From contig CAZTQY010000004.1 in assembly GCA_964616425.1 (NCBI GenBank), forward strand, positions 46,251-110,250: a DNA stretch of 64,000 nt, read 5' to 3'. The notes beneath the pieces were generated by a model. The model searched no databases and was not told where the DNA came from. It saw only the letters and a list, made by a program, of their open reading frames with translations. Made by a program: the position numbers and the translations under genes. The DNA comes from an uncultured Candidatus Saccharibacteria bacterium (GTDB taxonomy: Bacteria > Patescibacteriota > Minisyncoccia > Phycocordibacterales > DATDWN01). Below are positions 52,067 through 56,981 of the stretch, piece by piece; the stretch's first letter is position 1; every line of letters begins with the position of its first letter.

Positions 52067-52075
52067 TTTGTATTG

Positions 52076-52461
52076 TGGAGAAGCCGAGATTTGAACTCGG
52101 GTGCAAATAAGTTTTGGCAATGTTTCTACACGACGTAGTTGGTTTTGATTTTCAAACACGATTCTGTAAGCCAACAAAATGAATCGTATTTTAGTTTTCT
52201 TTGTGTCAGAACAAACTCGAAACTAAGTTGCTCTCAAGTCCGATGATATATCAACTATTTCCTGTAACAGACTTCGAGGAATAGCCGCCACTTTGGTTAG
52301 TCTTAAAAAAGATTAAGCGAAAGCGAGAGCGAATCCATTCGCCATAAATGGTGAAGGGATTGCCTTTGCAAAGGTGTTTTTAGCATCTATGCTTTGAAGC
52401 AGTTTTAAAAGTTACTTCAGCTTTGTCGTGCACATTGTCAAAGGACTTACTTGTCTATGCC
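52076..52461 (-). ncRNA. ssrA: tmRNA (ssrA), tag peptide reading frame encodes ANGFALAFA-stop (minus strand, ~52343-52314)
   Basis: Minus strand 5' GGGGAUGACAGGCAUAGACAAG (cf. GGGGCUGAUUCUGGAUUCGAC) with G3:U wobble acceptor; 3' end ccgagTTCAAATctcggCTTCTCCA (T-arm + acceptor); internal ORF GCG AAT GGA TTC GCT CTC GCT TTC GCT TAA; adjacent smpB; no protein ORF in region. Confidence 0.7.
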
Positions 52462-52649
52462 TGTCATCCCCCTGAAATAGACTTCTTGTTTATATTATTT
52501 TCTTTTTCTCATAATTTTTTCTTGTAACAGAATAATTTTCTGCTGAAAATTTTCTTTCTACTCACCTTTTCACAGGTTCCGTAGATACAAGAAAAAATTA
52601 TGAGTCAACGAAAATAAAAAGAAATTTACTTTAGCCGAATGATAGGGAA

Positions 52650-55824: not shown

Positions 55825-55901
55825 GGCCGGATTGATCCGGCCTTAAGCGTTTATATTTTTTTAAAAGTGTGCTAATTTATATGGGTTAATGTAATACAAA
55901 T

Positions 55902-55956
55902 GCGCCTGTACCTGCCCGCAGTGCTACGCACAGCGTTGCAGGCGGGGCTCAGTTTA
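55902..55956 (+). repeat. partial duplicate of tRNA-Ile 5' end (gcgcctgta + 36-37-nt GC-rich insert + gctcagtt)
   Basis: 19 of the first 20 tRNA nucleotides recur 300 nt upstream of the intact tRNA, bracketing the GIY-YIG ORF. Confidence 0.45.
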
Positions 55957-55967
55957 ATTTAGATTTT

Positions 55968-56204
55968 ATGTTTTATACATATGTTCTAAAAAGTTTAAAA
56001 GATAGTGAGTTGTATATTGGCTTTTCCAAGGATTTGAAAAATAGGATCAAGGAACATCATAAAGGTTTAGTTCCTGCAACAAGAGACAGGAGACCCTTAG
56101 AGCTAGTGTACTATGAGGCTTGCTTGAGTTATAGTAAGGCTGTTGAACGGGAAAAGTCGTTAAAAACTGGTTTCGGTCGTTCATATTTAAAAAGACGAAT
56201 ATAA
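55968..56204 (+). CDS. small GIY-YIG nuclease-domain protein (UPF0213/YhbQ-like)
   Basis: YTYVLKS...SELYIGFSKDLKNRIKEHHKG...R...LVYYE...E...K matches GIY-YIG catalytic core spacing. Confidence 0.6.
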   Translation: MFYTYVLKSLKDSELYIGFSKDLKNRIKEHHKGLVPATRDRRPLELVYYEACLSYSKAVEREKSLKTGFGRSYLKRRI

Positions 56205-56208
56205 TCAT

Positions 56209-56282
56209 GCGCCTGTAGCTCAGTTGGTTAGAGCACAGAGCTTATACCTCTGGGGTCCCAGGTTCGAATCCTGGCAGGCGCA
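56209..56282 (+). tRNA. tRNA-Ile with anticodon UAU (AUA-decoding)
   Basis: Cloverleaf: acceptor gcgcctg/caggcgc, D-arm gctc-agttggtta-gagc, anticodon stem cagag/ctctg with loop cTTATAc, T-arm ccagg-ttcgaat-cctgg, discriminator A; CCA not encoded. Confidence 0.8.
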
Positions 56283-56289
56283 CACGACG

Positions 56290-56320
56290 AAAAAAATCTC
56301 CTGAACGGAGATTTTTTCGT
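56290..56320 (+). terminator. terminator aaaaaaatctcctgaacggagattttttcg
   Basis: Hairpin + T-run after tRNA. Confidence 0.6.
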
Positions 56321-56477
56321 ACGCGTGCGAGGCACAGGCCGACGGGCCGAGCCGGGGTCGCGCAAAAATTCAACAGAATTTTATGCGTGACCACAGACGA
56401 AAACAAAATTATCCGTGACCACAACTAAATAATGCAAAAGGTCTGCAATCAAATTGCAGACCAAATGGGAACCTCCT

Positions 56478-56930
56478 TTATTTTTTGAACCCGAGTCTTT
56501 TGCGTCTGTGACGCACATTGTAAGCGGGGAATGATGGCGAGACCAGGAGTGCGATTTCTTTATCCGTTTTTGTTCTCCAGTTATCCTTTATGAGCATTTC
56601 GAGCTTGTGGTTTGGGCGAGAGTTAGTGTGACAGTGTCTCGAGAAACCAAGTTTGACTCTCAGTTTCTGGAATCCGAGAAAACTGTAACCAAGCTCGTTT
56701 GCCATCTCTGCATCGGACATCGAGTCTTTGTTTTCCTCGATGAACTTTTTTATCTGGTTATGCGGTATCCTTTCTTCGCTAGACTTTGCTCTCAGCACAC
56801 CATCCAGTAGTCTTACTTTTTGGATGGTACTTTTGGATAGCCCAGTGGCTTCTGCAAGTTTGGAGTCTGAGAGTAATTTGGCGTTCTTTCTGACAAACTG
56901 CTTATCTTCCTTCGTGACAAATCGGCGCAT
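56478..56930 (-). CDS. helix-turn-helix DNA-binding protein, hypothetical regulator
   Basis: Two HTH-like segments (LSDSKLAEATGLSKSTIQKVRL; MSDAEMANELGYSFLGFQKLRVKLG). Confidence 0.45.
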   Translation of the reverse strand: MRRFVTKEDKQFVRKNAKLLSDSKLAEATGLSKSTIQKVRLLDGVLRAKSSEERIPHNQIKKFIEENKDSMSDAEMANELGYSFLGFQKLRVKLGFSRHCHTNSRPNHKLEMLIKDNWRTKTDKEIALLVSPSFPAYNVRHRRKRLGFKK

Positions 56931-56981
56931 GCTCCTCCGGAGTCTAAGGTGTTTTATATATAATTTTTATGATTACGTCAA

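Follow-up and report, generated by a model that had tools for sequence, protein, structure and literature searches.

In fungal mitochondria, the elements named mORFs make gene hybrids, in atp6 of Allomyces and in atp6, atp9, cox2 and nad3 of Glomus (PMC3630166). They consist of a free-standing LAGLIDADG or GIY-YIG open reading frame (ORF) beside a replacement gene end, and the native gene end becomes a non-functional duplicate (PMC3630166). SegB of T4 is a GIY-YIG homing endonuclease which recognises the T-psi-C motif of tRNA genes, with a 27-bp site (PMC2330249). The rRNA genes of the candidate phyla radiation (CPR) contain non-intron insertions encoding GIY-YIG proteins, found at the top or at the base of stem-loops; tRNA genes are not mentioned in that work (PMC11270868). 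The GIY-YIG superfamily also has a minimal, stand-alone Slx1-like branch (PMC1564403). Repetitive hairpin-forming elements are found in sponge mitochondria, and double-hairpin elements in Allomyces (PMC2800124). We describe here an arrangement which shares features with all of these, found in a stretch of 64,000 nucleotides (the window) from an uncultured Candidatus Saccharibacteria bacterium (contig CAZTQY010000004.1, positions 46,251 to 110,250 of the forward strand). A gene coding for a 78 amino acid GIY-YIG protein lies there directly upstream of a tRNA-Ile(UAU) gene, and is preceded by a second, partial copy of the same tRNA, split by a small GC-rich hairpin which we call H. The whole segment is probably a mobile cassette which restores the gene it enters.

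The intact tRNA is found at positions 56209-56283 of the window (plus strand). ARAGORN identifies it as a tRNA-Ile with anticodon tat, in agreement with a previous interpretation of this DNA made from its letters alone (the sequence-only reading), and Rfam gives it a tRNA score of 74.6 bits. It looks functional, and would be the restored target. Its 5' end is found again upstream, as that reading had noticed: 19 nt in two blocks (0/100 shuffles), covering tRNA positions -2 to +17, with a start-to-start distance of 307 nt between the two copies. The first block of this relic, part A (ATGCGCCTGTA, 55900-55910, plus strand), contains 2 nt of the 5' flank and tRNA positions 1-9, and is identical to 56207-56217. 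The second block, part b' (GCTCAGTT, 55947-55954, plus strand), contains positions 10-17 and is identical to 56218-56225. The limits of the copy had been given as 55902-55956 and have to be changed to these values. Hairpin module H (CCTGCCCGCAGTGCTACGCACAGCGTTGCAGGCGGG, 55911-55946, unstranded, in the orientation denoted 'F') cleanly separates tRNA positions 9 and 10 in the relic. It is an imperfect palindrome, GC-rich as had been described (about 70% G+C in a region which we find to have about 30%), but its length is exactly 36 nt, not 36-37 nt. In the short sequence TAATTTAGA which follows part b', the D arm may continue in decayed form. The nuclease gene (55968-56204, plus strand) comes next, and its stop codon lies 4 nt before the tRNA start. 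The spacer between them is TCAT (56205-56208, plus strand), whose last two bases (AT) are part of the duplication.

An empty version of this site is found in L142, the orthologous locus of a close relative. Both sequences share the C-terminus of FtsH (KKKLDIEHQ), a terminator hairpin, a promoter-like flank and the tRNA. In L142 the flank (TTTTTTATAAAGTATGCTAATTTGATATGG...CAAT) runs straight into GCGCCTGTAGCTC, and relic, H and ORF are all absent. Behind the tRNA, both have an intrinsic-terminator-like hairpin with a T run (inverted repeat I1, 56291-56317 in the window, plus strand, part of the native 3' flank and outside the insert), followed by a GC-rich block. The two tRNAs show three differences over their aligned length, all of them in the T arm, and the difference at the site is 307 bp; the upstream flank was aligned separately from the global MAFFT alignment. 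By this comparison the window carries a 307-bp insertion relative to L142, which we place at 55911-56217, with limits that may slide to any rotation over the 19-nt duplication. The native flank of the tRNA gene (55863-55899, plus strand), which includes a promoter-like AAAAGTGTGCTAATTT and matches the flank of the intact tRNA in L142, precedes the relic in the window. It follows that the relic was the 5' end of the gene before the insertion displaced it, and that the ORF now separates it from the intact tRNA. This flank contains an extended -10-like motif (TGTGCTAAT, 55868-55876), now upstream of the displaced copy, and may act as a promoter; a sigma-70 consensus scan made no call on 55863-55899. 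A second pair gives the same picture: a similar flank, TGTGCTAATTTGTTATAG, precedes the partial copy in the occupied locus L001, and directly precedes the tRNA in the empty loci L136 and L139.

Empty sites are the rule. A 31-nt probe for the anticodon arm detected at least 120 metagenomic tRNA-Ile(UAU) loci, 108 of them with at least 400 nt of upstream sequence. Among the matches listed, a close GIY-YIG homologue (70% identity, tblastn) lies directly upstream of the tRNA in L115 alone, and about 105 of the 108 loci are empty, the typical order being the end of ftsH, a short spacer and the tRNA. The insertion into a tRNA gene with restoration of the target, as suggested by the sequence-only reading, thus agrees with the empty site L142, which lacks both the GIY-YIG gene and the partial repeat, and with the presence of the same design in dozens of genomes. 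Homing, which it had also named, is inferred as the mechanism. The same reading considered a UAU anticodon encoded in the genome uncommon; this holds across bacteria as a whole, but such an anticodon is routine within this lineage, as seen in the contigs detected with the probe (at least 120) and in 13 of 63 related loci. No ORF with the SGGxDS PP-loop motif of tilS is found in the 64-kb window, a result with no bearing on the genome outside it.

The ORF matches the Pfam GIY-YIG family (PF01541) over residues 1-70, with E 6.3e-15 and 55.7 bits against a cut-off of 22.6. Residues Y3, Y5, Y16, G18, R26 and E62 are invariant among 27 homologues, and H30 is at least 90% conserved. By its spacing from R26 and by analogy with UvrC and I-TevI, E62 would be the catalytic glutamate. 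The AlphaFold2 model has a predicted local distance difference test (pLDDT) score of 93.5 and a beta-beta-alpha-beta-alpha-alpha layout. When compared with the PDB by Foldseek, the UPF0213 protein BH0048 and Slx1 of the branched-DNA nuclease Slx1-Slx4 come first (query-normalised TM-score, TMq, 0.64-0.71), followed by the I-TevI catalytic domain and UvrC; the matches include 1zg2, 6sei, 7cq3 and 4xlg. A profile search against PDB sequences gives the same order (1zg2 8e-8, 1ywl 2e-5, SLX1 7wme 0.009). The closest solved relatives are thus the UPF0213 proteins 1zg2 and 1ywl, and the initial description of the ORF as YhbQ/UPF0213-like was a fair one. No meaningful family was found for it in NCBIfam, PADLOC or PHROGs, and an exact look-up of the protein returned no record.

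According to both Pfam and the model, the 78 amino acids correspond to the catalytic domain alone: a DNA-binding domain, or any other auxiliary domain, is absent. The protein is thus predicted to be a nuclease, a minimal stand-alone GIY-YIG domain of the Slx1-like/UPF0213 type. Characterised GIY-YIG homing endonucleases such as I-TevI couple the catalytic domain to a separate DNA-binding part. A domain recognising a long DNA site, joined to the catalytic domain in the style of I-TevI or Seg, is lacking here; the cassette resembles a homing endonuclease gene by its anatomy but falls outside the characterised I-TevI/Seg type. The dN/dS ratio (nonsynonymous to synonymous substitution rates) is 0.06-0.12 in comparisons with relatives, with saturated dS. 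This indicates strong purifying selection on the ORF, which therefore maintains the nuclease gene. Eukaryotic Slx1 cuts branched DNA (PDB 6sei and 7cq4 are among the fold matches), which fits the association of the cassette with a DNA hairpin. The strict linkage to H suggests that the protein may be specific for structure and cut branched or hairpin DNA.

The ORF belongs to a highly conserved family, which is nearly confined to metagenome-assembled genomes (MAGs) of Patescibacteria/CPR and forms a distinct CPR subgroup with the signature MFYTYVLKS...LKTGFGR. A profile search of 1.84 billion cluster representatives detected 15,335 members at E <=1e-3 and 3,110 at E <=1e-10. We have analysed 80 homologous loci from species-representative genomes, which were scanned for tRNAs; with the window they amount to 81. 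In 63 of these 81 loci, the ORF is followed by a tRNA of the same strand whose start is no more than 35 nt away; for comparison, similar CPR DNA contains approximately one tRNA per 4.8 kb. If tandem and hairpin variants and cases at contig ends are counted, 79 of the 81 are linked to a tRNA or to transfer-messenger RNA (tmRNA), the exceptions being L013 and L075. Many tRNA identities are represented at the occupied loci: Ile-UAU, Ile-GAU, Gln, Lys, Asn, Thr, Leu and Val, as well as Met, His, Glu, Asp, Pro and Arg, apart from tmRNA. Viral contigs gave a single match (L201), so the usual carrier does not seem to be a phage.

The split relic is also a general feature. A two-block search shows that in 57 loci the 5' end of the local tRNA itself is copied upstream of the ORF, and is split by a GC-rich hairpin of the H type. 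The blocks of exact match have medians of 11 and 9 nt. In the relatives the copy spans the tRNA from about +1 to about +21-26, often further with mismatches, and the ORF starts at the equivalent of position 30, approximately, of the tRNA copy. The relic is specific: a split-match score of at least 18 is reached with the local tRNA in 40 of 63 loci, and with tRNAs for other amino acids in 9 of 315 comparisons. The nearest neighbour of an ORF in sequence is found at a tRNA with the same anticodon in 21 of 63 cases (5.3 expected, with a maximum of 16 in 2,000 shuffles). We have also noticed that many database members of the family (P0121-P0270) are annotated with 100-130 amino acids, and their conserved domain begins at residue 20-40; in gene calling, these ORFs were probably prolonged upstream across the relic and the hairpin.

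H is single-copy in the 64-kb window. Folded as DNA, each of its strands gives -12.6 kcal/mol, with z values of -3.2 and -3.6. The 57 inserts have a median length of 40 nt, 67% G+C and a median z of -3.5, and 54 of them have z below -2. They share the hairpin arms CCCGCCYGC...GCGGGCRGG. An identical 31-mer core of the consensus hairpin is found in seven MAGs from different CPR groups, on either strand, adjoining six tRNA identities (Val, Ile, Leu, His, Lys and Gln); H in the window differs from this core at two positions. Both orientations occur, 35:22 in the 57 loci. The site in the tRNA copy lies between positions 5 and 22, the mode being 9/10, that is to say at the base of the D arm or in its loop, and the junctions show neither duplication nor loss of sequence. 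In the Ile(UAU) group, with the site at 9/10, the window, L001, L030 and L033 have one orientation, while L005, L019, L027 and L115 have the other. In five loci (L007, L018, L036, L067 and L080) H is nested inside another H.

Searches against Rfam over the region of relic, H and ORF, both at the gathering threshold and at E <=10, only detected the tRNA itself and noise. In 769 kb of DNA around the tRNA-Ile(UAU) loci detected with the probe (161 tRNAs), the only true H is that of the single occupied locus, L115. This rules out H as an independent dispersed element, such as a miniature inverted-repeat transposable element (MITE) or a repetitive extragenic palindrome (REP), since it is absent from comparable DNA except for the occupied locus. 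A role as a specific RNA signal is unlikely, given that both orientations occur. H is a conserved module strictly linked to the nuclease family, not incidental damage. A variant exists at tRNA-Lys and tmRNA genes (L031, L032, L034, L052, L061, L062 and L201), in which H directly adjoins position +1 of the intact gene, the ORF lies upstream and a relic is absent. In L031, for example, a close homologue is followed by H and then by tmRNA.

A separate case is L071. About 20-115 nt after its tRNA-Leu(CAG), two tandem hairpins of the H type are found in the apparent T loop of a 3' tRNA relic, in the order gggttggaggtt-H-H-gagtcctcttctgggcac. H is therefore not limited to D-arm relics.

Several loci contain more than one unit, or an incomplete one. 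L010 has two tandem relic-H-ORF units which are 100% identical. In L021, L038, L041 and L055 there is a second relic with H, and the second ORF is absent. One MAG has two copies, L060 and L063, each at a different tRNA. The relic ranges from perfect, as in the window, to heavily decayed (L006, L011 and L022), with an intact ORF throughout. In L002, the acceptor sequence of the relic (CCGCCTG) does not match that of the functional tRNA (CCGCGAG), and is equal to that of tRNA-Ile(UAU) in other species, as expected if DNA has been exchanged between lineages. The loci with the exact protein P0094 (L202-L210) have identical ORF and tRNA-Gln DNA behind two different upstream flanks, with different relics and H variants. 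After their functional tRNA-Gln we find one, two or more identical units of 131 nt (a 33-nt spacer, H and tRNA positions 11-72), whose number varies between assemblies; assembly chimeras at such repeats are possible. In L207, a partial H is joined to the 3' part of a different tRNA-Gln.

Other targets are also found. In L013 (2001-2330), the family ORF starts at an ATGA overlap with the stop codon of a gene similar to those for aminoacyl-tRNA synthetases (aaRS), and a diverged copy of the end of this gene, of about 85 nt and carrying H, follows the ORF. A distant GIY-YIG subfamily (about 40% identity) lies between smpB and tmRNA in L193, L195 and L198; L198 shows a duplication of about 48 nt from the 3' end of smpB in front of tmRNA, with no hairpin. 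L044 (1000-1460) has two GIY-YIG subfamilies in series before a single tRNA-Lys, the second ORF having its own relic, split by a different small hairpin (ccccgattaaatcgggg). This suggests that several pairs of nuclease and hairpin use one strategy.

Further partial tRNA copies occur. Ten loci (L084, L104, L113, L143, L145, L150, L152, L158, L161 and L193) have ORF-less units directly before an intact tRNA-Ile(UAU), in which tRNA positions 1-12 are repeated (CCGYCCTTAGCT) and followed by a diverged sequence resembling a D arm (GTTTTGGCTAGGCGAAAAGT) and a spacer of about 40 nt. L143 and L150 have these units in tandem. An insertion of the same kind may have left them as remnants, or they may be its non-autonomous relatives. 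In L089, L134 and L165, a partial copy which extends through the anticodon loop (…GAGCTTATA) is found upstream of the complete tRNA-Ile(UAU). The intervening stretch in L089 and L134 has about 80 nt and paired ends (AATTGG...CCAATT and AACGGG...CCCGTT), with no match in Rfam. These three loci have a different insert which follows the same logic of 5' duplication. A counterpart on the 3' side, with yet another insert, is seen at tRNA-Leu in L036 and L066, and also in L002 and L073: the last 18-22 nt of the tRNA are found again 130-165 nt beyond the end of the intact gene. Between gene and copy, L036 and L066 have a conserved, GC-rich and structured-looking element (…GGGAAGGGGYCGGGAAAC…GTTTCCCG…AAACCGTGGGTTTT…), with no match in Rfam.

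We consider it probable, with a probability of about 0.65, that the 307-bp segment is a selfish, mobile, target-restoring nuclease cassette of the homing type in the tRNA-Ile(UAU) gene. An insertion there would destroy an essential and probably single-copy tRNA gene, which is why the cassette would come with a duplicated tRNA 5' end. The upstream copy would keep the native promoter context as a dead relic split by H, and the downstream copy would complete an intact tRNA. The nuclease gene itself shows no obvious promoter, and is most likely transcribed from the tRNA promoter as a leader-relic-H-ORF-tRNA transcript, from which RNase P would free the tRNA. The nuclease would break an empty allele in the D-arm region of the tRNA gene, and repair would then copy the cassette from an occupied allele, the relic and upstream flank providing homology on the left side and the intact tRNA on the right. 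Such homing-type repair of double-strand breaks, between occupied and empty alleles of the same tRNA, seems to us the most likely mechanism. Within the non-essential copy, H might destroy the target of the nuclease, break up a direct repeat prone to deletion, or both. The two orientations of H and its nesting suggest that it is perhaps processed as a DNA hairpin or cruciform by a structure-specific nuclease. Tandem arrays could arise if the restored tRNA is cleaved and then subject to misaligned repair from the relic.

A number of points weigh against this reading. Cleavage and its target are deduced from comparisons of DNA. It is difficult to see how a protein of 78 amino acids with no DNA-binding domain, unlike the characterised GIY-YIG homing endonucleases, would recognise the sequence of a tRNA gene. 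The presumed target in the D arm is still present in the complete tRNA downstream, which leaves the immunity of the occupied allele unexplained, unless the site reaches into the native 5' flank. The relatedness of the ORFs tracks tRNA identity only partly, so colonisation of new tRNA types must be frequent, and simple homing does not explain how a new locus obtains a relic which matches its own tRNA (A and b') with H cleanly in its middle. Pure homing therefore fails as a full account. Finally, in the P0094 set H varies with its context while the ORF is identical, so, unless the assemblies are chimeric at these repeats, H and ORF have not always been transferred together.

The main rival, which we regard as rather unlikely, is an insertion of the transposon type: staggered cuts about 20-30 bp apart (near -2 and +20-26), perhaps on structured or single-stranded DNA, would be joined to the cassette and filled in, leaving a long target-site duplication. 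H would then be a separate tiny hairpin element using the same nuclease, which persists only in non-essential hairpin-like targets such as the D arms of relics or the loops of other H copies. This would account for a relic which always matches the local tRNA, whatever its identity, for ORF relatedness only partly predicted by tRNA type, and for outer limits of the duplication which are fairly constant (about +1 to about +21-26) while H varies in inner position (5-22) and orientation. The nesting of H in five loci (L007, L018, L036, L067 and L080), the four ORF-less relics with H and the duplications outside tRNAs, at the aaRS-like end in L013 and at the smpB end in L198 (L193 and L195 have the same smpB-ORF-tmRNA layout), fit as well. 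But no GIY-YIG protein is known as a transposase, and the cassette has no terminal repeats. Moreover, the duplicate in L013 is diverged at many positions, as a foreign replacement copy would be and a fresh target-site duplication would not, and the relic of L002 departs from its own tRNA and agrees with the tRNA-Ile of other species. The split tRNA copy itself might determine specificity: arms A and b', as single-stranded DNA or RNA, would pair with the complementary strand of a complete tRNA gene, leaving H to protrude where the arms meet, and the resulting three-way branch would be cut by the Slx1-like nuclease. The insertion would then make its own guide, giving a self-programming, hairpin-guided homing nuclease. 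This idea is a long shot; the decay of relics next to intact ORFs and the relic-less variant at tRNA-Lys speak against it.

The selection on the ORF might also be explained by a benefit to the host, with the GIY-YIG protein as a factor of tRNA metabolism, encoded in an operon whose relic and hairpin act as a cis-regulatory leader (a tRNA mimic, or a signal for processing or stability). Its tight, co-oriented placement 0-15 nt upstream of tRNAs, the size of the family (3,110 cluster representatives at the stricter threshold) and a fusion of GIY-YIG with TrmH, the tRNA Gm18 methyltransferase, which hints at RNA roles in the Slx1 cluster (PMC1564403), point in this direction. We find it very unlikely all the same, since about one in 108 equivalent tRNA-Ile(UAU) loci is occupied, among the matches listed, and the close relative L142 is empty. 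The tRNA differs from genome to genome, L010 has identical tandem copies, decayed relics are found next to an intact ORF (L006, L011 and L022), and the hairpin is found in either orientation, unlike a specific RNA signal. A further reading would be an integrase-type islet, with the repeat as an att site, or the remnant of a group I intron, with the repeat left by an exon. Integration at tRNA genes is classic, and group I introns are found in tRNA genes of some bacteria. The anatomy effectively rules both out, and we give them hardly any credit: no recombinase or integrase lies among the neighbours, the duplication corresponds to the 5' side and not to a 3' tRNA segment, and the insert has only 307 bp. 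Rfam finds no intron even at E <=10. The intact tRNA is complete without splicing, and it is a truncated copy that is interrupted, at 9/10, not a single gene in its anticodon loop. Chance likeness of a GC-rich intergenic stretch to the tRNA 5' end, finally, has next to no probability. Single 11-mers do recur by chance within 1.7 kb (for example D9), but the two-block pattern GCGCCTGTA-N(20-50)-GCTCAGTT has a single occurrence in the window and none in 100 shuffles, and a split copy of the local tRNA is found in 57 independent loci. Together with the control of local against other tRNAs, this refutes it.

In the window, the cassette has as neighbours ftsH, a 74 amino acid ORF, a 150 amino acid ORF with weak helix-turn-helix (HTH) similarity and recG, with no integrase. 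A tblastn search found no second copy of the cassette in the 64 kb. ARAGORN detects one tRNA in the whole window, the tRNA-Ile, as well as a tmRNA at 52075-52471, which has no GIY-YIG gene of this kind upstream. After the tRNA terminator there is a 48-nt block with about 75% G+C (gtgcgaggcacaggccgacgggccgagccggggtcgcgc, 56318-56365), whose sequence is almost fully kept in L142. Two direct repeats of 24 nt ending in GTGACCACA come next (56372-56423), of which L142 has a single one. Rfam gives no match in this region (56318-56423). A segment of about 580 bp (56396-56975), between the tRNA region and the recG stop codon, is absent in L142 and contains the 150 amino acid ORF with weak HTH-like matches (56478-56930, minus strand). 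In L142, GTGACCACA is followed by the end of recG within 5 nt, so this is a second insertion or deletion difference beside the tRNA.

If our interpretation is true, a very compact selfish element has its hot spot in the tRNA genes of Patescibacteria, whose genomes are small and have most tRNA genes in single copy. The element would enter an essential RNA gene without an intron, by rebuilding the 5' end of the gene. The interpretation would also provide a first biological context for a large uncharacterised family of stand-alone Slx1/UPF0213-type proteins, with its 15,335 cluster representatives. A question of specificity then arises: how a nuclease of 78 residues with no DNA-binding domain, together with a hairpin of 36 nt, finds tRNA genes. 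A nuclease directed by a hairpin or by structure would be of practical interest. Relics and hairpins can also mislead the calling of tRNAs and ORFs in CPR MAGs. We have found no description of the arrangement in the literature searched, which lay largely outside subscription journals, so an earlier description is possible.

Compared with the known systems, the cassette is similar to mORFs in having a replacement end and a relic, and in its presence/absence polymorphism between close relatives. L013, with a protein-coding target, has the same layout: gene 3' end, ORF and diverged relic. The differences are that the usual target is a tRNA gene whose 5' end is duplicated, that the restored gene lies downstream and would be read through the cassette, that the nuclease is a 78 amino acid catalytic domain, that a conserved hairpin splits the relic, and that the hosts are Patescibacteria, not organelles. 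With SegB it shares a GIY-YIG nuclease gene set among tRNA genes, but SegB has neither target duplication nor hairpin module, and the implied target of the cassette is on the D-arm side. Unlike proteins of the I-TevI and SegB type, the cassette protein is a catalytic domain alone, with Slx1/UPF0213 as the nearest fold.

The UPF0213/YhbQ-type proteins (PDB 1zg2 and 1ywl) have the same minimal domain, and are the closest relatives in both sequence and fold. No function, mobility or tRNA linkage was found described for them in the literature searched; the CPR family differs from them as a distinct and very conserved subgroup with its own genomic syntax. The CPR rRNA insertions are found in the same group of hosts, and are also GIY-YIG ORFs in non-intron inserts at stem-loops of structural RNAs. 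There, the rRNA is interrupted and the insert is presumably removed from the RNA, whereas the cassette keeps the tRNA intact by duplication. The GC clusters of yeast mitochondria are GC-rich hairpin elements comparable to those of sponges and Allomyces. H resembles these organelle elements in being a short GC-rich palindrome in AT-rich genomes, with clean insertion, both orientations and nesting. It differs from them in being confined to relics beside a nuclease gene, not dispersed, and in its conservation almost at base level across CPR classes. In summary, hairpin module H is a new component on a known plan, that of the free-standing, homing-type, target-restoring cassette.

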